From a virus (lineage: Duplodnaviria; Heunggongvirae; Uroviricota; Caudoviricetes): DNA of 10,743 bases. The stretch lies in the IMG/VR virus record IMGVR_UViG_2690316267_000013. One strand, given 5' to 3'. Under the pieces are notes generated by a model that had not been told where the DNA came from, did no database searches, and worked only from the letters and a program-made list of their open reading frames with translations. How positions within the stretch are numbered: the first letter of the stretch is position 1; every line of letters begins with the position of its first letter. This document shows positions 1 to 10,704 of the stretch, piece after piece. Position numbers and translations under genes: made by a program.

Positions 1-2334
1 TCAGGTTGTTGCAGGGTCGTCACATTTTGGCAGCCAGTCGCCGTAGCTTTCCTCTTTCAGCGTCAGGTTGGTCTGTATCCCCTGTTTGGTATGGCGCTTC
101 TCGTAATTCAGTCCGTATTCCTTCAGCATCACCGGCAGCCCCAGCCCGAACATTTTCAGACTGAGTACGTTCCGGTAGCCGTTTGCCTCCATGTAGGCCA
201 GATAGGCGTGATAGAGGTATTTACGGTAATTGCGCGGGATGATACTCGCGTTCCCCATATACATGCCGCTGGTCTGCGGCAGGGTTTCCAGATAGCCGAT
301 AAAATCAAACGTCGGGTCGGCATCCCGTTTGATGTTCAGCGCCTCGTCTGAGTTCTGCTGGGACTGAAGCAGTGACCGGGCGAGCATCGGGTCGCTGAAC
401 TTCTGCATCAGGTGACGCACGATGACCGCCAGCTCGCGGGTGATTTTGTCCTTAAGCTGCGGGTCGCGCTCCTGCGGGGCTATCTGTTCCGGGAAGTGAA
501 TAATCACCCGCCGGCGTGACACGCCGCCGCTGCGGTCGGTGAAGCGCATCGGGTTATTGTTCACGGCCAGAATCACCGCCGGGATGTGCGTGGAGTACGC
601 ATCCCGGTATTTCGGGTCAACGGACACCGCATCGCCGCCGGTGATGGCCTTGAGTCCGGCTCCGTCGCCGCTCCATTTTTCCTGGTCCGGCAGGCGTATC
701 AGTGAGAAGCCAGTTAACGCGGCACGTTCACGCGGGGATTCCAGCGTCTCAATGGTGGCCGACGTGGCGTTATCTTCCCCGGCCAGCAGGGTGGCTATTT
801 CGGCCATGATACTTTTGCCGCTGCCGCCGGGACCGGTCACCTCCAGAAAGAGCTGCCAGTCGTAGCGGTTTGCCAGCACCATAAACAGTGCGGCCAGAAT
901 CACGTCGCGTTTTTCCGCACGACCACCGGCGGCACGGTCAAGCCAGCGCCAGAACGCGGGGGCGTGGGTTTCCAGCGTTTCCCCTTCCACCGGCGGGGTG
1001 AAATCCACATCGCACAGGGTGCGCATCCAGTGTGACGGACTGTGCGGGTGGAACGTGCCGCTCTGCGTGTCGAGCACGCCGTTACGAAAGCCAATCAGGC
1101 GGCGGGAGGGGGCTTCCTGCTGCGGAATAATCAGCTTCAGGGTGTCCACCACGGAGGCCACCTTCCCGGAGGAGAACGGCGCGCGCAGCCGCTGAAACAG
1201 CCCGGCCACATCCCGGGCAAAGTCCTGTGGTGGCAGCACCTTCCAGACACCATTTTCATAACGGGACAGAAGCTGGCCGTTGGCATCGACCGCGAGCGCC
1301 TCGCCGTAATGCTCATAGATACGCATGGCCTTTTCGCTGGTACTCATGGCGGAAAACTCCGCTTCGCTCATGGTGTCGAACGGGCTTTCAGCCGGTGGCC
1401 GGATGGCATCATAAATGGCCTTACGGGTGGCTTCCCCGCCGTACTGCGTGAAGGCATCATTCCAGTCACCGAAGACCGGCGGCAGGGCAACAACACCTTC
1501 ACACGCATCTGCGGCTGCGGCGGCTTTTGTCTGGCCGTCACCGCTGAGGTCACGGTCAGCAGCAAGGACAATATGACAGGCCGGATGCTTCTGCCGGGCA
1601 AGGCTGGCCAGAGAAAGGAGGTTCACGGAAGAAAGCGCCACCATCACCGTTTCACCGGTCAGGTGATGTACGGTAAGTGCGGTCGCGTATCCCTCCGCTA
1701 TCCACAGACGTTTTCCGGCCTGATTCTGTCCTTCAAGGGTGTGACAGGTGCCCCTGACCTGTCCGCCTTTCAGGGTACGCTTACGGCCGTCAGCACTGAT
1801 TAACTGAAGGTTAACCAGTTCGCCGCTGTCGTCATACAGTGGCACCACAAGGTCACCGGCGCGCCAGCTCACGCCACCGGCTCTGTGTGTGCCGGTCAGC
1901 ATCCGGCATTCCCGGCCGGGAAAGCCCTTGCGGGTCAGGTAGGCGTTACCGGTTCCGGGACGGGTTTTTGCCATCAGGGTTTGTGCCAGTGCGGCGGCGT
2001 TCTTCCGGGCAGCGTCTGTTTCAGCAACGGCGGCGGCCGTCACTGCCGGGTCAGCCGGGGGCAGACTGCCGGTCACGGCAGCCACCTTTGCGGCCGCGTC
2101 GGACGGGGAGACACCAAACACCTTTTCAACCAGTTTCAGGCCGTCACCGGCACCACACTGATTGCAGTACCAGGTGCCGCGCCCCTCCCTGTCATCAAAA
2201 CGGAAGCGGTCACTCCCGCCACAGACCGGACAGGGCTGATGACGGTTTTTCAGCACCTGAATCCCCAGCGCCGGGAGAATACGCGGCCAGTGGCCGAGCG
2301 CATGGCTGACGGTGGCGGTTACGTTCATTTTCAT
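1..2334 (-). CDS. alpha: P4-type alpha replication protein: zinc-ribbon/TOPRIM primase fused to a P-loop helicase, 777 aa
   Basis: N-terminal Cys4 motif (CPVCGG...CNQCG), TOPRIM acidic motif (LAADRD), Walker A (GPGGSGKS). Length is identical to P4 alpha. SD aaggag lies about 9 nt upstream of the ATG at 2332-2334. Stop codon at 1-3. Confidence 0.9.
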   Translation of the reverse strand: MKMNVTATVSHALGHWPRILPALGIQVLKNRHQPCPVCGGSDRFRFDDREGRGTWYCNQCGAGDGLKLVEKVFGVSPSDAAAKVAAVTGSLPPADPAVTAAAVAETDAARKNAAALAQTLMAKTRPGTGNAYLTRKGFPGRECRMLTGTHRAGGVSWRAGDLVVPLYDDSGELVNLQLISADGRKRTLKGGQVRGTCHTLEGQNQAGKRLWIAEGYATALTVHHLTGETVMVALSSVNLLSLASLARQKHPACHIVLAADRDLSGDGQTKAAAAADACEGVVALPPVFGDWNDAFTQYGGEATRKAIYDAIRPPAESPFDTMSEAEFSAMSTSEKAMRIYEHYGEALAVDANGQLLSRYENGVWKVLPPQDFARDVAGLFQRLRAPFSSGKVASVVDTLKLIIPQQEAPSRRLIGFRNGVLDTQSGTFHPHSPSHWMRTLCDVDFTPPVEGETLETHAPAFWRWLDRAAGGRAEKRDVILAALFMVLANRYDWQLFLEVTGPGGSGKSIMAEIATLLAGEDNATSATIETLESPRERAALTGFSLIRLPDQEKWSGDGAGLKAITGGDAVSVDPKYRDAYSTHIPAVILAVNNNPMRFTDRSGGVSRRRVIIHFPEQIAPQERDPQLKDKITRELAVIVRHLMQKFSDPMLARSLLQSQQNSDEALNIKRDADPTFDFIGYLETLPQTSGMYMGNASIIPRNYRKYLYHAYLAYMEANGYRNVLSLKMFGLGLPVMLKEYGLNYEKRHTKQGIQTNLTLKEESYGDWLPKCDDPATT

Positions 2335-3782: not shown

Positions 3783-3789
3783 TCATGGG

Positions 3790-3875
3790 TGGTAGCCCGG
3801 ACGGGGGTAGGAATACCGGCCTTCAAGGAAACCGGCCAGCCCGAAGGCTGCCCCGCCCGGACCACCATTATCTGA
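3790..3875 (-). ncRNA. cI: Candidate CI-like immunity RNA containing a seqB element (approximate boundaries)
   Basis: Non-coding stretch between the two target-like sites. It contains 3805-3828 (gggggtaggaataccggccttcaagg), the reverse complement of blocks in both flanking sites. A stable hairpin with a UUCG tetraloop on the minus-strand RNA lies at 3837-3850, and a possible closing stem pairs ggtggtccgg with ccgggctaccacc. Ends were not determined. Confidence 0.4.
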
Positions 3876-3962
3876 CAGAGGCTACGGTTTAAAAACCACA
3901 GCCAGAAAAACAGGTGTGCCGAAGCAACGACGTAAAAAAAGACGCATGGCGCGTCATATGTC

Positions 3963-3990
3963 GCCTTGAAGTAACTCGGGTTCCTACGCC
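3963..3990 (-). promoter_or_regulatory. seqA-like target site in the leader of the early leftward transcript
   Basis: ccttgaagtaac at 3964-3975 and ggttcctacgcc at 3979-3990, both complementary to the seqB-like element at 3805-3828. Confidence 0.5.
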
Positions 3991-4018
3991 CGGCTGCCGA
4001 TTTTGCGGCAGCGGAAAA

Positions 4019-4048
4019 ACTATATCCGCAAATGCCGGAAAAAGGCAA
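4019..4048 (-). promoter_or_regulatory. Candidate sigma70 early leftward promoter (PLE-like)
   Basis: On the minus strand: -35 TTGCCT (4043-4048), 18-nt spacer, -10 TATAGT (4019-4024). This would start the transcript about 20 nt upstream of the seqA-like site. By eye only. Confidence 0.35.
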
Positions 4049-4902: not shown

Positions 4903-5637
4903 ATGTCTGACAACACCATCCCTGAATATCTGCAACCCGCACTGGCACAACTGGAAAAGGCCAGAGCCGCTCATCTTGAGAACGCCCGACTGATGGATGA
5001 GACCGTCAAGGCCATTGAACGGGCAGAGCAGGAAAAAAATGCGCTGGCGCAGGCCGACGGAAATGACGCTGATGACTGGCGCACAGCCTTTCGTGCAGCC
5101 GGTGGTGTCCTGAGCGACGAGCTGAAACAGCGCCACATTGAGCGCGTGGCACGCCGGGAGCTGGTACAGGAATATGACAATCTGGCCGTGGTGCTGAATT
5201 TTGAACGTGAACGCCTGAAAGGGGCGTGTGACAGCACGGCCACCGCCTACCGGAAGGCACATCATCACCTTCTGAGTCTGTATGCAGAGCATGAGCTGGA
5301 ACACGCCCTGAATGAAACCTGTGAGGCGCTTGTCCGGGCAATGCATCTGAGTATCCTGGTACAGGAAAATCCGCTCGCCAACACCACCGGCCATCAGGGC
5401 TACGTCGCACCGGAAAAGGCTGTCATGCAGCAGGTGAAATCATCGCTGGAACAGAAAATTAAACAGATGCAAATCAGCCTCACCGGCGAGCCGGTTCTCC
5501 GGCTGACCGGACTGTCAGCGGCAACACTCCCGCACATGGATTATGAGGTGGCAGGCACACCGGCACAGCGCAAGGTGTGGCAGGACAAAATAGACCAGCA
5601 GGGAGCAGAGCTTAAGGCCAGAGGACTGCTGTCATGA
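4903..5637 (+). CDS. sid: Sid, capsid size-determination external scaffold protein, 244 aa
   Basis: ATG at 4903 preceded by SD aggag with a 7-nt spacer; the ORF track starts 18 nt earlier at an in-frame GTG at 4885. Length from the ATG equals P4 Sid. Coiled-coil-like, Ala/Glu/Leu-rich sequence. Stop overlaps the delta start (ATGA). Confidence 0.85.
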   Translation: MSDNTIPEYLQPALAQLEKARAAHLENARLMDETVKAIERAEQEKNALAQADGNDADDWRTAFRAAGGVLSDELKQRHIERVARRELVQEYDNLAVVLNFERERLKGACDSTATAYRKAHHHLLSLYAEHELEHALNETCEALVRAMHLSILVQENPLANTTGHQGYVAPEKAVMQQVKSSLEQKIKQMQISLTGEPVLRLTGLSAATLPHMDYEVAGTPAQRKVWQDKIDQQGAELKARGLLS

Positions 5638-6134
5638 TTTACTGCCCGTCGTGTGGACATGTTGCTCACACCCGTCGCGCACATTTCATGGACGATGGCA
5701 CCAAGATAATGATTGCACAGTGCCGGAATATTTATTGCTCTGCGACATTTGAAGCGAGTGAAAGCTTTTTCTCTGACAGTAAAGATTCAGGAATGGAATA
5801 CATTTCAGGCAAACAGAGATACCGCGATTCACTGACGTCGGCCTCCGGCAGTATGAAACGCCCGAAAAGAATGCTTGTTACCGGATATTGTTGTCGGAGA
5901 TGTAAAGGCCTTGCACTGTCAAGAACATCGCGGCGTCTGTCTCAGGAAGTCACCGAGCGTTTTTATGTGTGCACGGATCCGGGCTGTGGTCTGGTGTTTA
6001 AAACGCTTCAGACCATCACCCGCTTCATTGTCCGCCCGGTCACGCCGGACGAACTGGCAGAACGCCTGCATGAAAAACAGGAACTGCCGCCAGTACGGTT
6101 AAAAACACAATCATATTCGCTGCGTCTGGAATGA
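5634..6134 (+). CDS. delta: Delta, late transcription activator with two Ogr-like zinc-finger modules, 166 aa
   Basis: Two Cys4 modules (CPSCGH...CRNIYC and CRRCKG...CTDPGC). Length equals P4 Delta. Start is coupled to the sid stop. Confidence 0.85.
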   Translation: MIYCPSCGHVAHTRRAHFMDDGTKIMIAQCRNIYCSATFEASESFFSDSKDSGMEYISGKQRYRDSLTSASGSMKRPKRMLVTGYCCRRCKGLALSRTSRRLSQEVTERFYVCTDPGCGLVFKTLQTITRFIVRPVTPDELAERLHEKQELPPVRLKTQSYSLRLE

Positions 6135-6207
6135 GGGCTGCCGGTTAACACCGGCCGTCGCCACACACCGTATTTTTATTCTTCAGCATGATGAGAAAGA
6201 GATAACG

Positions 6208-6780
6208 ATGGAAAGCACAGCCTTACAGCAGGCCTTTGACACCTGTCAGAATAACAAAGCAGCATGGCTGCAACGCAAAAATGAGCTGGCTGCGGCCGAA
6301 CAGGAATATCTGCGGCTTCTGTCAGGAGAAGGCAGAAACGTCAGTCGCCTGGACGAATTACGCAATATTATCGAAGTCAGAAAATGGCAGGTGAATCAGG
6401 CCGCCGGTCGTTATATTCGTTCGCATGAAGCCGTTCAGCACATCAGCATCCGCGACCGGCTGAATGATTTTATGCAGCAGCACGGCACAGCACTGGCGGC
6501 GGCACTGGCACCGGAGCTGATGGGCTACAGTGATCTGACGGCCATTGCCCGAAACTGTGCCATACAGCGTGCCACAGATGCCCTGCGTGAAGCCCTCCTG
6601 TCCTGGCTTGCGAAGGGTGAAAAAATTAATTATTCCGCACAGGATAGCGACATTTTAACGACCATCGGATTCAGGCCTGACGCGGCTTCGGTGGATGACA
6701 GCCGTGAAAAATTCACCCCTGCGCAGAACATGATTTTTTCGCGTAAAAGTGCGCAACTGGCATCACGTCAGTCTGTGTAA
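6208..6780 (+). CDS. psu: Psu, polarity suppression (Rho antagonist) and capsid decoration protein, 190 aa
   Basis: 190-aa ORF, last gene of the sid-delta-psu operon, directly upstream of cos. Same length and position as P4 Psu. Confidence 0.85.
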   Translation: MESTALQQAFDTCQNNKAAWLQRKNELAAAEQEYLRLLSGEGRNVSRLDELRNIIEVRKWQVNQAAGRYIRSHEAVQHISIRDRLNDFMQQHGTALAAALAPELMGYSDLTAIARNCAIQRATDALREALLSWLAKGEKINYSAQDSDILTTIGFRPDAASVDDSREKFTPAQNMIFSRKSAQLASRQSV

Positions 6781-6810: not shown

Positions 6811-6849
6811 AAAAAAGCCATGCATCGATAAGGTGCATGGCTTTGCATG
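6811..6849. terminator. Hairpin terminator after psu, bidirectional (strong on minus strand, weaker on plus)
   Basis: 9-bp stem agccatgca/tgcatggct (6816-6824 and 6834-6842) with a 9-nt loop. It is flanked by A6 on the left (a U6 tract for minus-strand transcripts) and ttgcatgcgttt on the right. Confidence 0.5.
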
Positions 6850-6944
6850 CGTTTCCCTGCCTCATTTTCTGCAGACCGCGCCATTCCCGGCGCGGTCTGA
6901 GCGTGTCAGTGCAACTGCATTAAAACCGCCCCGCAAAGCGGGCG

Positions 6945-6963
6945 GGCGAGGCGGGGAAAGCAC
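6945..6963. other. cos site: 19-nt P2/P4-type cohesive-end sequence GGCGAGGCGGGGAAAGCAC
   Basis: Exact match to the 19-nt cohesive end shared by P2 and P4 as I recall it. Located between psu and the cargo gene, as in P4. Flanked by inverted repeats at 6872-6899 and 6977-7015. Confidence 0.7.
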
Positions 6964-7198
6964 TGCGCGCCCCCGGTTGGTGCTCGTTACTAATGTTTTT
7001 TGCGCCCGAGCACCGTCGGGAAGGGGCTGGGGGGGATAGGGGAGGTGCCTGACGTCGCGCGGTAATGTTGGTAAGTGTGCCGCTGATGGCTTCTGAGGGG
7101 AGTGGTAAATAGCCGCCTTTCGACGGTGTAGTGGGGAGAGTATTGCTTACAAACGTAATGAAATTGTTTGAGTAGCTAGGCTACTGCATAGGATTATT

Positions 7199-7228
7199 TT
7201 GTTCTGTTAATATATCCGTTAATATAGA
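7199..7228 (+). promoter_or_regulatory. Candidate sigma70 promoter of the cargo gene
   Basis: -35 TTGTTC (7199-7204), about 18-nt spacer, -10 TATAGA (7223-7228) in an AT-rich stretch. Direct repeat gttaatata at 7202/7205-7213 and 7219-7227 overlaps the spacer. By eye only. Confidence 0.3.
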
Positions 7229-7254
7229 TAGATTGATCCAATTGAGTTTAAGGA

Positions 7255-8964
7255 ATGAGTATGTTTCAGATATCAGCTGGAGTGTTCTTTGATTTAGATA
7301 AAATAGAAAAACACGATGGCACATTTGTTTTTTATTCAAATGTTGATGTGTCTTTCTCGGTGGAAAACACCTCCCCTCTTTTTAAAGCAAATAAAATAAG
7401 TCATGATGGTATAAACTGTTATGTGGTAAACTATACTCTCCTGACCGAAAAACCAGAACGAATTGAAGCTGGAGTCGTAGTTAGGGCTGGTGATGAGGAT
7501 TATAGGCAACAATTTATTTTATTATGGGAATTCTATTTTGATTGTGTGGCTAGAGTAGAAAAAGAATCGGTTAAAAAAATATGTGCATTATCAAATTTTA
7601 ATAAACATCACTCAAAAATTGCGCTTGAAGTTGCCCCATATTTAGTGGAGATTAATCGAAGAGTTTCATTTGATGATGTCTCTGGGTTTTCTGCTTTTAT
7701 TAAAGATGTAGTGAATCTAAATAGATCTGCCTTTAAATCTTTAATGGCAGCGTTAAAAATAATTAGTGATTCAAAAGAATCATTGTCAACCAACTTTGAC
7801 CTGACTTATTCCATGTTAGTCTATGCCTTGGAGTCTTTGTCTCAAAGAAATGATAACTATAAGTCTGATTGGGATGACTACGATCAAAAAACCAGAGGTG
7901 AATTAGAGTCTGTATTTGAGCATATGCCTGGTGAGGATGTTTGTAAAATTAAATCAATACTTATTGAAGGCAAACAATTCAGATTACAAAAAAGGTTCAA
8001 AGATTTTATACTGAAAAATCTTGAAGAAAATTATTTCAATGAAACAGAGAGATATCCAATCCGCTATAGCTTCCTTAGTAGAGCTTTAGATAATTTATAC
8101 AAAATCAGGTCTTCTTTTGTCCATGAGCTTAAGCCACTTGATGCAATGATCTCGAAAGCCTACAATCCTGTTGGTGATTGTCTGGTTCTTTTTGGCGAAC
8201 CTCACTTCAGTTACTCTGGATTGCTTCGACTTCTTCGCCATGTGATAATAAATTTTTGCCGTAAAAACTACAGTCAAAAAAGAGAGTCTGTTAATTGGGT
8301 GATGGAAACATCGGGTGTAATGGTTGCAGAGATATCTGCACAATATTGGCTCTGGAATGCAGACGGATTTACAGCTAAAAGTATAGCGAAGTGGTTTAGT
8401 GAATACCTAAATATGTTAAATTTAGGCGAAGTCACTGATTTGCAGTCTATCATGGACAAAATTGAGATAATCTATGATCAATCCAAAAAAGAATATAAAA
8501 ATGGGTTGTTGCATTTTTATTTCTTATATAACTTAATGCATAATGGAAATAAGGGTGAATGGCTTGAGTTTGCGAACAAGCGAAGTTCTATACTTGTTTG
8601 TGATATATATTGGTATTCATGCTCTCCATATTTATATAAATCATTTACTAATGTTTCAAATGGTATTGCTGATATAAAAACATTGAGAAACTTTTTGTCT
8701 TGTTTTAACGAATATGATAAAAATAAATTTAAGCCAAATCGTTTAAATCTCCCTGCAATGACCGAAGTAATTATGTTGGCTTGCGCAGCAAATTCATTCT
8801 TCAGAATTGGAATGTATCAAGACTATGTTTTAATGGGCAATAGAGCGATGAGAGAAATTGCTTCAGTAAAAGATGTATTTTATTATATAAAAGAACGATT
8901 AAGTAATTCACAACTTATTGAATTGGACGAGTGCTTGAGATTGTATAGAAAAAAGGGGGGCTAA
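7255..8964 (+). CDS. Low-GC cargo protein of unknown function in the cos-int hotspot (569 aa from the first ATG; 567 aa from the better-placed ATG at 7261); candidate anti-phage or abortive-infection protein
   Basis: Long uninterrupted ORF with SD aagga 6 nt before the ATG at 7261. Composition is AT-rich and Lys/Asn/Ile/Phe/Tyr-rich, contrasting with the GC-rich satellite core. No Walker A and no YxDD motif. One R-x4-H motif (IRSSFVHE, codons at 8104-8127). Occupies the position where P4 carries gop-beta-cII. Confidence 0.8.
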   Translation: MSMFQISAGVFFDLDKIEKHDGTFVFYSNVDVSFSVENTSPLFKANKISHDGINCYVVNYTLLTEKPERIEAGVVVRAGDEDYRQQFILLWEFYFDCVARVEKESVKKICALSNFNKHHSKIALEVAPYLVEINRRVSFDDVSGFSAFIKDVVNLNRSAFKSLMAALKIISDSKESLSTNFDLTYSMLVYALESLSQRNDNYKSDWDDYDQKTRGELESVFEHMPGEDVCKIKSILIEGKQFRLQKRFKDFILKNLEENYFNETERYPIRYSFLSRALDNLYKIRSSFVHELKPLDAMISKAYNPVGDCLVLFGEPHFSYSGLLRLLRHVIINFCRKNYSQKRESVNWVMETSGVMVAEISAQYWLWNADGFTAKSIAKWFSEYLNMLNLGEVTDLQSIMDKIEIIYDQSKKEYKNGLLHFYFLYNLMHNGNKGEWLEFANKRSSILVCDIYWYSCSPYLYKSFTNVSNGIADIKTLRNFLSCFNEYDKNKFKPNRLNLPAMTEVIMLACAANSFFRIGMYQDYVLMGNRAMREIASVKDVFYYIKERLSNSQLIELDECLRLYRKKGG

Positions 8965-8980
8965 CCCCTTTTATTTTTAA
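8949..8980. terminator. Bidirectional intrinsic terminator shared by the convergent cargo and int genes
   Basis: aaaagggggg-ctaa-cccctttt hairpin (G/C stem 8955-8968) with T-tracts on both sides (tttatttttaa on plus; U6 on minus). The stop codons of both genes (8962-8964 and 8961-8963) lie inside the loop. Confidence 0.5.
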
Positions 8981-10157
8981 CGTATTCTCCCCACCAATCC
9001 ATCAATTCAATTCGCTGCACGAGATAAGTAGAACGATTGTATGCTTTTCTAACTTCATTTTTATCACTGTGGGCTAAGGCAGACTCGATAACATCAGGAT
9101 TTAATCCAGCTTCATTCATGGCTGTACTTGCTATTGAACGTAATCCATGGGCAACTAATTTTCCGCCAAAACCAATACGTTTTAAAGCTGCATTTGCAGT
9201 CTGACTGTTCATTGGTTTCTTTGGGTCATTCCGACTCGGAAAAACATATTCACGATGAGCACTAATAGGCTTCATCACATTAAGAATCTCTAATGCCTGA
9301 GATGATAGAGGAATTATGTGTTCCCGTTTAGCCTTCATCCGTTCGGCAGGAATCGTCCAGAGCTTTGCATGAAGATCGATTTCTTCCCACCGAGTACTGG
9401 AGGCTTCAGAAGGGCGCACAAGAGTCAGGAGTTGCCATTCAATTAGACAGCGAGTCGGGATAGACAGATTTGACATGACTAAAGAACGCATCAGCTTTGG
9501 TAATTCTTCAGGTCGAAGCGTCGGCATGTTTTGTTTTTTTGGCTTTTCGAAGGCCATGCCAACACCTGATGCTGGGTTTGCATCAATCAAGCCAGTGTTA
9601 ACCGCATAAATCATTATTTCGTTAATGCGTTGCACCAGACGACGTACAGTCTCTAATGCCCCACGAGCTTTGACTGGCTCAAGTGCTTCGACCAATGTTC
9701 TAGCTTTGATCTGCTGAACGGGCATCTCACCAACGGCGGGGAATACATCTTTTTCCAATGAGCGCCAAATATCTTTTGCATAATCAGGGGTAACACTTTT
9801 GCTTTTGAGCTGAAACCAATTAGCGGCGACCGTCGAGAAAATACTGTCCTGTGCGATTTGCTGCTGTTCCTCTGCAATTTCAGCTTGAATTTGCGGGTCA
9901 ATTCCGTTGGCTAACAAGGAAAGGTAATCCGCTCTTAAGCGTCGGGCGTCAGCAAGTGAAAGGGCTGGGAAGGCTCCTAGCCCCATCATTGTCCGTTGCT
10001 TTGTTGCCGGACGTTGATAACGGAAACGCCATAACTTCTTACCGTTCGTTTTAACGAGTAGAAAAAGACCATCGCCATCATGCAACGTTAGATCCTTTTC
10101 TAACGCTTTAGCGCGCAGTACTTCTGTGTTGGTCAGGGGGCGTGTCGTTCTTGCCAA
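8961..10157 (-). CDS. int: P4-type tyrosine integrase (N-terminal arm-binding domain plus catalytic domain), 398 aa, TTG start
   Basis: N-terminus typical of P4-family integrases (LTNTEV...GLFLLVKTNGKKLWRFRYQ...LGAFPALSLADAR). Catalytic-type HGLR and C-terminal Tyr region (RKAYNRSTY). SD gaaggag lies 8 nt upstream of the TTG at 10155-10157. Adjacent to and co-oriented with ssrA. Confidence 0.9.
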   Translation of the reverse strand: MARTTRPLTNTEVLRAKALEKDLTLHDGDGLFLLVKTNGKKLWRFRYQRPATKQRTMMGLGAFPALSLADARRLRADYLSLLANGIDPQIQAEIAEEQQQIAQDSIFSTVAANWFQLKSKSVTPDYAKDIWRSLEKDVFPAVGEMPVQQIKARTLVEALEPVKARGALETVRRLVQRINEIMIYAVNTGLIDANPASGVGMAFEKPKKQNMPTLRPEELPKLMRSLVMSNLSIPTRCLIEWQLLTLVRPSEASSTRWEEIDLHAKLWTIPAERMKAKREHIIPLSSQALEILNVMKPISAHREYVFPSRNDPKKPMNSQTANAALKRIGFGGKLVAHGLRSIASTAMNEAGLNPDVIESALAHSDKNEVRKAYNRSTYLVQRIELMDWWGEYVKNKRG

Positions 10158-10341: not shown

Positions 10342-10704
10342 TGGTGGAGCTGGCGGGAGTTGAACCCGCGTCCGAAATTCCTACATCCTCGGTACTACAT
10401 GCTTAGTCAGTCTTTACATTCGCTTGCCAGCTGCGGACGGACACGCCACTAACAAACTAGCCTGATTAAGTTTTAACGCTTCAACCCCAGGCAGGGCTTC
10501 CACGCGATCTCTTTTGGGTTTGACCTCTCTTGATCCCCGTCCTAAGAGCGGAGGCTAGGGAGAGAGGGCTCTAAGCAGGTTATTAAGCTGCTAAAGCGTA
10601 GTTTTCGTCGTTTGCGACTATTTTTTGCGGCTTTTTACGAGGCCAACCGCCCCTCGGCATGCACCTTGGGTTTCGCAAATCCCGTCGAATCCAGAATCAG
10701 CCCC
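10342..10704 (-). ncRNA. ssrA: tmRNA (SsrA), 363 nt, enterobacterial type
   Basis: The reverse complement reads GGGGCTGATTCTGGATTCGACGGG ... and ends ...GTTCAACTCCCGCCAGCTCCACCA, matching E. coli tmRNA as I recall it. It includes the tag-peptide reading frame GCAAACGACGAAAACTACGCTTTAGCAGCTTAA (ANDENYALAA stop) at 10583-10615. Confidence 0.95.

Follow-up and report, generated by a model that had tools for sequence, protein, structure and literature searches.

A foreign cargo gene in the cos-int slot of a P4-like satellite encodes a predicted HEPN-type ribonuclease with a TPR-like tail, a candidate single-gene anti-phage protein

The window that we analyzed, a stretch of 10,743 nucleotides, contains a P4-like satellite integrated at ssrA, which carries a long AT-rich ORF in the slot between cos and int. 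The tmRNA that serves as the attachment site of the satellite lies within the window. The satellite backbone comprises the primase gene (1-2334), the C4 RNA (3785-3872) and a delta-like gene together with psu (5634-6780). The conserved left landmark of the hotspot is a 19-nt cohesive-end sequence, GGCGAGGCGGGGAAAGCAC, read directly at 6945-6963 (unstranded), which we take to be the P2/P4 cos end. The same sequence is also found upstream of differing cargos in Rousset's cloned sequences. The GC-rich leader that follows (6972..7140, + strand, GC 0.60) is already part of the variable region, since identity with pFR86, a RexAB-like P4 cargo locus, stops just past ...GCACTGCGCGCC. The right border of the hotspot is formed by the P4-type integrase gene int (8961..10157, - strand). 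Its stop codon (8961-8963) overlaps that of the convergent cargo ORF (CTAA, 8961-8964), and a hairpin, AAAAGGGGGGCTAACCCCTTTT (8951..8972, unstranded), covers both stops and is terminator-like in both directions. The C-terminus of the integrase reads ...WWGEYVKNKRG here and ...WWGEFVHNRHRLMQAI at the pFR88 locus. As the last ~8 int codons are not the ones seen in a satellite that carries another cargo, the swap junction lies inside the 3' end of int.

The ORF between these borders (7255..8964, + strand, 569 aa) is of a length that would arise by chance with a probability of about 1e-21 at this composition. The original prediction had described a long ORF at 7255-8964 between cos and int, and both its position and its overlap with the int stop were confirmed. 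The foreign composition claimed for it was also borne out: the GC content of the cargo gene is 0.33 and its GC3 0.28, against 0.61 and 0.71 for the primase gene and 0.53 and 0.55 for psu, and its commonest codons are AAA, AAT, TTT, GAT and TAT. A survey of the slot, likewise proposed in the original prediction, found the hotspot flanks in 2250 of the 5426 complete E. coli genomes and the full locus in just 19. The slot is variable among otherwise similar satellites and its cargo is compositionally foreign; the gene at 7255-8964 is a foreign, swappable cargo of the P4 psu/cos-int hotspot.

The ATG at 7255, with which the original prediction began the protein, is the less favored of two starts. 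The true start is more likely the ATG at 7261, which gives a 567-aa product (7261..8964, + strand), since AAGGA (7250-7254) lies 6 nt upstream of it, the RefSeq protein has 567 aa and all homologues start M-F/L-Q-I. The upstream region (7141..7260, + strand) is AT-rich (GC 0.30) and holds, in addition to this ribosome-binding site, two weak sigma-70-like candidates, TTGAGT-18-GATTAT (7168-7197) and TTAATA-16-TAGATT (7207-7234). Upstream of the cargo gene, a strict promoter scan returned zero + strand sites and a relaxed scan nothing better than 8-of-12 matches. The protein is identical to WP_000486482 of E. coli ATCC 8739 (cluster P0001, 100% identity, 344 member sequences). Of the 19 carrier genomes, 18 keep the 567-aa frame intact at 99-100% identity, and in one it is split by IS1A. 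The split allele indicates that the gene is dispensable, which fits a cost to the host and fits a useless gene too. A 3' remnant of the gene is present in other strains.

We then considered the architecture of the protein; residue numbers follow the 569-aa scheme unless stated, E193, R285 and H290 being E191, R283 and H288 in the 567-aa numbering. The AlphaFold model (mean pLDDT 84) shows strands at aa 17-78 and helices thereafter, in agreement with the beta-rich N-terminus and helical body of the original prediction. Its other structural statements also held, in that neither a Walker A nor a YxDD motif was present in the cargo protein and no transmembrane stretch was apparent (maximum 19-aa hydropathy 1.20). 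According to the model and to a conservation analysis, the N-terminal module (aa 1-112; 7255..7590, + strand) consists of five beta-strands (aa 17-78) followed by two helices, and its N-terminus, M-L/F-Q-I..K-F, is near-invariant; N27 also belongs to its conserved positions. The central domain (aa 139-337; 7669..8265, + strand) has an all-alpha HEPN fold, with a core up-down helical bundle and an insert of ~60 residues between its two motif helices. E193-S194-L195 (7831..7839, + strand) lies in the helix before the putative catalytic helix; E193 is invariant in 66 homologues, S194 and L195 are invariant in a 27-sequence set, and the leucine reaches a frequency of 0.88 over the 66. The putative HEPN catalytic site is R285-S-S-F-V-H290 (8107..8124, + strand), the sole R-x(4-6)-H motif in the protein, of which the R, S and H are invariant in both the 27 and the 66 homologues, down to 18% identity. 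Over the 66 homologues (18-42% identity) the only invariant positions are E191, W204, Y280, R283, S284, H288 and L290, in 567-aa numbering. Since the R-x4-H residues are invariant across such divergent homologues, selection acts on the putative catalytic site. The C-terminal TPR-like helical-repeat domain (aa 374-567; 8374..8955, + strand), a putative sensor or oligomerization domain, is the most variable part of the family, the mean top-residue frequency being 0.32 in these repeats versus 0.46 in the HEPN core. In the alignments, a conserved effector is joined to a variable putative sensor. The original prediction had found the protein unplaceable in any named defense family from sequence alone and had overlooked the R285-H290 motif. 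We place it as a HEPN protein, distantly Apea-like, with a TPR-like C-terminus, and by analogy with known nucleases it is probably a stand-alone ribonuclease of the HEPN type whose tail is TPR-like.

The profile and structure searches that the original prediction had advised were in part empty. With the cargo protein as query, Pfam, NCBIfam and PHROGs gave nothing significant (for Pfam, no match at E <= 1), and Foldseek with the whole chain found no significant match in the PDB. When the PDB was searched by sequence and by profile, the only matches were TPR-like and insignificant, so that no solved relative is detectable by sequence. The PADLOC Cas13-ApeA HEPN model did give a match, a weak one (E = 7.3e-6 over aa 150-275), and it matched 8 of the 27 members; beyond this model, PADLOC-DB v2 gave just CSD_V at an insignificant E = 0.057, with DARNA/PD-T7-3, PD-T4-2 and the other HEPN systems unmatched. 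This match, together with the label 'HEPN_Apea' in Table S1B of Rousset et al. (2022), suggests that the protein could be a member of the ApeA family (Gao_Ape) and act in the ApeA mode, in which a doughnut-shaped decamer takes up 5'-phosphorylated deoxydinucleotides in a pocket and cleaves tRNA anticodon loops. An hhalign comparison with an Apea-like HEPN family points the same way, with 147 collinear columns and both motif helices in register (E = 4.7e-4), but its probability is only 33%. PF18739 (HEPN_Apea) has no match to the cargo protein itself, matches 2 of the 27 members (best E = 0.024) and matches none of the 66 homologues at E <= 0.01, and the sole further PADLOC hit is to CSD_V. Moreover, the HEPN domain is C-terminal and split in ApeA (catalytic Arg 502/521), whereas it is central here (R285), and the ligand pocket of ApeA is built by its N-terminal and HEPN domains, a feature with no demonstrated counterpart in the cargo protein. 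We therefore regard an ApeA-type enzyme as very unlikely, membership of ApeA being rejected on the missing PF18739 match and the different domain order. The cargo protein was also judged to be none of the newly named P4 systems (Crouga, Bandua, Aernus, Toga, Reve and Hailong), whose described domains differ, and, on architecture, to be neither DARNA nor HepS.

The family to which the cargo protein belongs comprises 1217 clusters at 50% identity, mostly of full-length proteins, and ranges over Proteobacteria, Firmicutes, Actinobacteria and Cyanobacteria. This large family lacks a model in Pfam and NCBIfam, and PADLOC picks it up weakly, via one ApeA-type HEPN model, so that current annotation pipelines label all its members 'hypothetical'. 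It sits repeatedly on mobile elements and beside known defense systems: homologues adjoin Gabija-like pairs in Vibrio and, on a plasmid, in Acinetobacter, a B. thuringiensis plasmid carries another ~3.5 kb away from Cas9, and one is inserted between the terminase and portal genes of a Lacrimispora prophage. A conserved neighbor or partner gene was sought over the contexts examined and none was found; the gene is solitary.

The novelty implied by the original prediction did not hold, as the exact protein is system #38 of Rousset et al. (2022), listed in Tables S1A and S1B as 'HEPN_Apea', 'Likely a RNAse', in 42 of 5251 loci. In that study the gene was cloned with its native upstream region as pFR83 'HEPN-TPR' and counted among the 'additional tested systems'. 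With 8 coliphages, a small panel, 7 systems gave MG1655 protection, and pFR83 was not one of them; nor was it one of those that protected E. coli C against P2 and 4 P2-like phages; P4 cargo was generally without restriction of P2-like helpers (Rousset et al. 2022). The clone-and-challenge experiment put forward in the original prediction had thus largely been done in 2022, and the absence of protection on that panel is, in part, the outcome named there as counting against a defense role. A full-text literature search on 'HEPN-TPR' and on the accession WP_000486482 found no follow-up paper. DefensePredictor (2026) lists the exact protein as a 'Predicted novel defense gene' with a mean log-odds of 7.09, as a prediction alone. 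The candidate is consequently not new: the 2022 study had already catalogued and cloned it and had seen no phenotype on testing, and machine learning predicted it again in 2026. As a single-gene anti-phage system it is favored by its solitary gene, its HEPN domain, its defense neighbors and DefensePredictor, and disfavored by the negative phage test of 2022; that it is a suicide-type anti-phage protein is plausible but unproven.

The negative phage tests bear on two other explanations. The gene could be a decaying, silent or non-catalytic passenger, one that is unexpressed or whose product only binds RNA or protein, and that currently serves no selected function in E. coli. Such a passenger would agree with those tests (Rousset et al. 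2022), with upstream scans that gave no convincing promoter, with the rarity of the locus (19 of 5426 complete genomes) and with the IS1-disrupted allele and the 3' remnant in other strains; some HEPN domains are indeed non-catalytic (Anantharaman 2013). However, most members of the 1217 clusters are full-length, and 18 of the 19 genomes retain a nearly identical, intact frame, for which a good ribosome-binding site is available. The putative catalytic R and H are invariant, too, the reverse of the pattern in non-catalytic HEPNs (Anantharaman 2013). We find a passenger distinctly unlikely. Alternatively, the protein might be a functional HEPN RNase that serves the satellite's own conflicts and not general anti-phage defense: it might stabilize the satellite as an addiction or post-segregational toxin, attack rival satellites or prophages that compete for the same helper or attachment site, or modulate helper exploitation. 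That none of the 8 coliphages and none of the 5 P2-like phages was kept off would be expected of such a protein, as would carriage on mobile elements (satellite, prophage and plasmids) and the physical coupling of the gene to int by the swap junction and the shared terminator. HEPN toxins are, moreover, common in toxin-antitoxin systems (Anantharaman 2013). Yet an antitoxin-like small neighbor is conserved in none of the contexts, some homologues lie in chromosomal islands beside Gabija-like genes, with nothing that needs stabilisation, and a simple addiction toxin needs no large sensor-like domain. The hotspot is also rich in true defense systems, with success for 7 of 19 constructs in one experimental study (Rousset et al. 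2022) and for 14 of 19 candidate or unknown loci in another, in which 2 of 8 'unknown' loci were unprotective (NAR 2026 gkag898). On balance, we consider a role in the satellite's own conflicts unlikely.

The explanation that we favor, with somewhat better than even confidence, is that this swappable cargo of the hotspot codes for a HEPN ribonuclease that is stand-alone, has three parts and would abort infection when activated by a trigger. Its RNase activity, its oligomerization, sensing by the TPR-like domain and the tRNA target are what we infer by analogy with the single-protein HEPN defense RNases ApeA, DARNA (PD-T7-3), HepS and DS-11. The protein would be made in an inactive and probably oligomeric form, in which paired HEPN domains may form a composite active site. 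A non-catalytic part, for which the variable TPR-like domain is the prime candidate, would sense a phage-derived cue, which could be a protein, a peptide or a nucleic-acid product, and this sensing might open or align the active site. The enzyme would then cut cellular RNA, most likely tRNA anticodon loops, so that translation would halt and infection would abort ahead of progeny release. The P2-type helper, which the satellite needs, would be expected not to trigger the protein.

Several known systems resemble parts of this scheme. ApeA is a tRNA anticodon nuclease that causes abortive infection and is activated allosterically, via a pocket apart from the active site (Gao et al. 2020; Juozapaitis et al. 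2026, doi 10.64898/2026.01.26.701840). The two proteins share a single-gene organization and a length of ~570-600 aa, and PADLOC and hhalign link them weakly through an Apea-like flavor of the HEPN domain, with A-L-E-S-L and R-S-x3-H helices that align in register. In contrast, ApeA is ordered as a helical N-domain, a Mid domain and a C-terminal split HEPN (R502/R521), and the cargo protein as a beta module, a central HEPN (R285) and TPR-like repeats. DARNA/PD-T7-3, which is another tRNA anticodon nuclease and whose HEPN dimers assemble into a higher-order oligomer, likewise joins a HEPN RNase in one polypeptide to a large all-helical, non-catalytic C-terminal domain, which in DARNA senses (SSB-bound) ssDNA (Puteikiene et al. 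2026, doi 10.64898/2026.02.22.705581). Unlike the cargo protein, DARNA has 456 aa, carries its HEPN at the N-terminus (R117x4H122) and lacks a beta module. The PADLOC model for DARNA gave no match here, and its C-terminal domain is Pds5-like where that of the cargo protein resembles TPR proteins. HepS, a HEPN abortive-infection nuclease of mobile elements that cuts tRNA anticodon loops, senses a phage structural protein, the tail-tip protein, and spares its own prophage (Nature 2026, PMC13043305), which is the logic expected of a satellite cargo that must spare its helper. It differs in having fewer than 250 aa, a minimal HEPN (R100/H105) and no extra domains, forms a tetramer and has no detectable sequence relationship with the cargo protein.

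If active, the cargo protein would stand out among single-protein HEPN abortive-infection RNases by its architecture, in which a central HEPN lies between a beta module and a TPR-like tail and no NTPase is present, and it would pose the clean question of what is sensed by the TPR-like domain. It is possible, although we would put the chance a little below even, that the protein is the E. coli founding example of a widespread beta-module/HEPN/TPR-like family of immune sensors (at least 1200 clusters), that its cue was absent from the 2022 panel, that RNA cleavage aborts infection and that its activation is unlike that of ApeA, DARNA and HepS.

Two further comparisons concern another protein of the P4 hotspot and immune proteins with TPR sensors. 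The 318-aa protein #24, 'HEPN_Apea', is also encoded by a single gene of this hotspot and also called 'Likely a RNAse' (Rousset et al. 2022). BLASTP and single-sequence hhalign between it and the cargo protein were not significant, and #24 itself has no Pfam match; both motif helices (CSALESLFS and NIRSKVTHG in #24) are nevertheless common to the two, with a weak profile-profile match. #24 is half as long and has neither the TPR-like domain nor the ~60-residue insert between the motif helices. Proteins with TPR sensors, such as the P4 TIR-NLR with its C-terminal TPRs (Rousset 2022) and the Avs/STAND families, resemble the cargo protein in the fusion of C-terminal helical repeats, the proposed sensor, to a toxic effector. 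They differ from it in possessing a STAND/NTPase module and in using TIR, SIR2 or DNase effectors where a predicted RNase is found here; as the cargo protein has no Walker A, its oligomerization cannot be NTP-driven. The TIR-NLR is carried in this same hotspot.

By gene content the window is a P4-like satellite, with a primase-helicase gene (1-2334, minus strand), DUF5375 and Icd-like genes, delta-like and psu genes (5634-6780), a 19-nt cos end (6945-6963) and a P4-type integrase gene (8961-10157, minus strand). Rfam matches to the P4-type antisense C4 immunity RNA (3785-3872), isrK (3935-4012) and the c4 a1b1 target (3973-4025), all on the minus strand, confirmed a P4-like immunity region at 3785-4025. 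About 185 bp past the int start lies the attachment site, a complete ssrA tmRNA gene (10342-10704, minus strand; tag peptide ANDENYALAA). This places the integration site at ssrA, matching the arrangement in E. coli ATCC 8739, in which smpB comes next.

The original prediction placed a long foreign ORF between cos and int. A single long ORF of 569 aa is present there (7255-8964, plus strand), with a GC of 0.33 and a GC3 of 0.28, compared to 0.61 and 0.71 for the primase gene; given the local base composition, the chance of 569 stop-free codons is about 1e-21. The true start, however, is probably not 7255 but the second ATG at 7261, since AAGGA (7250-7254) lies 6 nt upstream, the RefSeq protein has 567 aa and every homologue starts with M-F/L-Q-I. 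Directly past psu lies a hairpin with a T-run behind it (GCCATGCA...TGCATGGCTTTG; 6812-6850, plus strand), missing from the list of the automatic scan; it looks like the late-operon terminator, which implies that expression of the cargo gene depends on a separate promoter; upstream promoter candidates are weak. Cargo gene and int have overlapping stop codons (CTAA) within the loop of a second hairpin (AAAAGGGGGG/CCCCTTTT; 8951-8972), a potential bidirectional terminator. Compared with a satellite bearing different cargo, int diverges over its final ~8 codons, which suggests that recombination during cargo exchange takes place within the int 3' end.

The survey of slot variability that had been proposed was borne out: the locus flanks were found in 2250 of 5426 complete E. 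coli genomes and the cargo gene in only 19, confirming that the slot is variable. In E. coli SCPM-O-B-7615 (locus L012, NZ_CP144926.1, 762-3244), an IS1A lies inside an otherwise 100%-identical copy, which is annotated as ORFs of 152 and 424 aa. E. coli TOK-001 (H20, NZ_AP018395.1) carries just the final ~590 bp of the gene beside int (99.6% identity, matching 8375-9100 of the window), a fragment that may be the leftover of a cargo swap.

Scans of the cargo protein against Pfam, NCBIfam and PHROGs returned nothing significant, and its sole PADLOC match was the "Cas13-ApeA" HEPN model (E = 7.3e-6, aa 150-275), which also matches 8 of 27 diverse family members; no other model does. As originally stated, the protein has no Walker A, YxDD or hydrophobic segment; what had been overlooked is an R-x4-H motif, present exactly once (R285-H290). 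When 27 homologues are aligned, 15 columns are invariant, among them E193-S-L, Y282, R285, S286, H290 and L292, and only seven persist in 66 sequences of 18-42% identity (E191, W204, Y280, R283, S284, H288 and L290 in the numbering of the 567-aa protein). Thus, the strongest constraint on the family falls on the classical HEPN R-x4-H helix and the preceding helix. The AlphaFold model (mean pLDDT 84) agrees with the predicted beta-rich N-terminus and helical body. In the list of HEPN structures compared with the cargo protein, the leading entries were AbiV (9bj5, 7.5), a "HEPN domain protein" (4nqf, 7.5), a HEPN toxin (8xdj, 6.8), Csm6 (8jbc, 6.4), AbiA (8oz7, 6.2) and the sacsin HEPN (3o10, 6.2); 1wol, 1ufb, HepT (7ae2), 1ylm, LAS1L (9dun) and 1jog were placed lower. 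The protein thus falls into three parts: a beta module at the N-terminus (aa 1-112), a HEPN domain in the middle (about aa 139-337), whose two motif helices are separated by a ~60-residue insert, and TPR-like repeats at the C-terminus. We are highly confident that the protein has a HEPN fold and that its catalytic motif is intact. It is not a true ApeA member: there is no PF18739 match, and domain order and catalytic position differ, only a weak HEPN kinship being seen.

An exhaustive profile search collected 1217 clusters at 50% identity, 484 of them at E <= 1e-30; among the best 150, nearly all proteins are 555-625 aa long and match end to end. The family is large and architecturally stable, and has no Pfam model. 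Conservation peaks in the HEPN core and at the very start of the protein and is lowest in the C-terminal repeats (mean top-residue frequency 0.32, versus 0.46 in the HEPN core), as expected for a conserved effector joined to a diversifying sensor. In the 66 distant homologues, conservation of aa 1-29 (7255-7341; M-L/F-Q-I..G-K-F, N27/N29) nearly equals that of the catalytic helix, and this segment may contact either the catalytic site or an interface between oligomer subunits.

Homologues occupy varied contexts. One adjoins a Gabija-like pair and a trypsin/NACHT-like giant protein amid transposases in Vibrio navarrensis, one an AAA ATPase and UvrD helicase pair on an Acinetobacter baumannii plasmid, one resolvase and umuD in a variable island of Klebsiella, and one DUF4145 (a HEPN family) and a kinase/phosphatase pair in Ferrimonas; on a Bacillus thuringiensis plasmid Cas9 is ~3.5 kb away, and in a Lacrimispora prophage the gene is inserted between those for the terminase large subunit and portal. 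No neighbour is common to these six contexts; the gene therefore acts alone. A Gabija-like AAA/OLD-TOPRIM and UvrD-helicase pair lies directly beside the homologue in two unrelated hosts (V. navarrensis chromosome, locus L007, 3131-7492; A. baumannii plasmid, locus L014, 7937-11675), which may reflect either a recurring association or no more than co-residence in islands. The distant Lacrimispora homologue (locus L008, 8001-10355) is directly followed, in the same orientation, by an unannotated gene for 215 aa, a neighbour absent from the other contexts examined.

The cargo protein is identical to WP_000486482 of E. coli ATCC 8739, listed by Rousset et al. 2022 (PMC9122126) in Table S1A; system #38 of Table S1B is "HEPN_Apea" (42 loci, "Likely a RNAse"), and Table S2B ("additional tested systems") includes the gene as plasmid pFR83, "HEPN-TPR", a pSC101 construct whose insert starts at the psu 3' end and extends through the native promoter and the gene. 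In that study, 18 systems and the P4 reference set were challenged with eight coliphages in MG1655, seven giving robust resistance (Table S2A), and all P4 systems were challenged with P2 and four P2-like phages in E. coli C, where the TIR-NLR system alone protected. The cloning and phage challenge originally proposed had thus largely been done with pFR83, with a negative outcome on a small panel. ATCC 8739 (NC_010468) has a second P4-like hotspot locus with other cargo, an AAA_22 protein (Tables S1A/S2B), cloned as pFR82 "NOD-1" and tested without reported phenotype (PMC9122126). DefensePredictor (Science 2026, PMC13092281) scored WP_000486482, located at a contig end, as a "Predicted novel defense gene" (mean log-odds 7.09), with HHblits connecting it to no known defence protein; the tables of cloned systems do not contain it. 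None of the six newly active P4 loci named in a NAR 2026 study of P2/P4 hotspots shares its architecture, as judged by description, and a full-text search found neither "HEPN-TPR" nor WP_000486482 in the main text of any paper. The suggestion of a hotspot-borne abortive-infection candidate was reasonable, but the gene is an already published HEPN candidate tested without phenotype: an open candidate and no discovery, encoding a putative single-protein HEPN RNase with a distinct architecture not covered by any current family model.

The negative phage tests would fit a HEPN toxin that works for its own satellite, in addiction or in competition with rival elements; we regard this as rather unlikely, as no antitoxin-like partner was found and chromosomal homologues adjoin Gabija-like genes. 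The same tests, the weak promoter candidates, the rarity of the locus and the IS1A-split allele would also suit a silent or non-catalytic passenger, which is quite improbable given the strict conservation of frame and catalytic residues across a very large family. We favor, with moderate confidence, a trigger-activated defence or abortive-infection RNase: the gene is solitary, carried on mobile elements and associated with defence loci, and its product joins a HEPN fold and invariant R-x4-H to a TPR-like tail of greater variability. If it works like the characterised single-protein HEPN defence RNases, the protein would be synthesised in an inactive state in which paired HEPN domains form a composite site; a cue from the phage would be detected away from the catalytic centre, and the activated enzyme would cleave tRNA anticodon loops or other RNA, aborting the infection. 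Among the precedents, ApeA is an anticodon nuclease that assembles into a decameric ring and is switched on when 5'-phosphorylated deoxydinucleotides occupy a distal pocket (doi 10.64898/2026.01.26.701840); DARNA/PD-T7-3 couples HEPN to a C-terminal helical domain whose ligand is ssDNA presented by SSB (doi 10.64898/2026.02.22.705581); HepS is activated by a tail-tip protein and spares its own prophage (PMC13043305); and DS-11 has CBS and HEPN domains. That tRNA anticodon loops are the target is, on these analogies, a tentative proposal. The satellite-borne version should not be triggered by its own P2-type helper, in agreement with the general finding for P4 cargo (PMC9122126).
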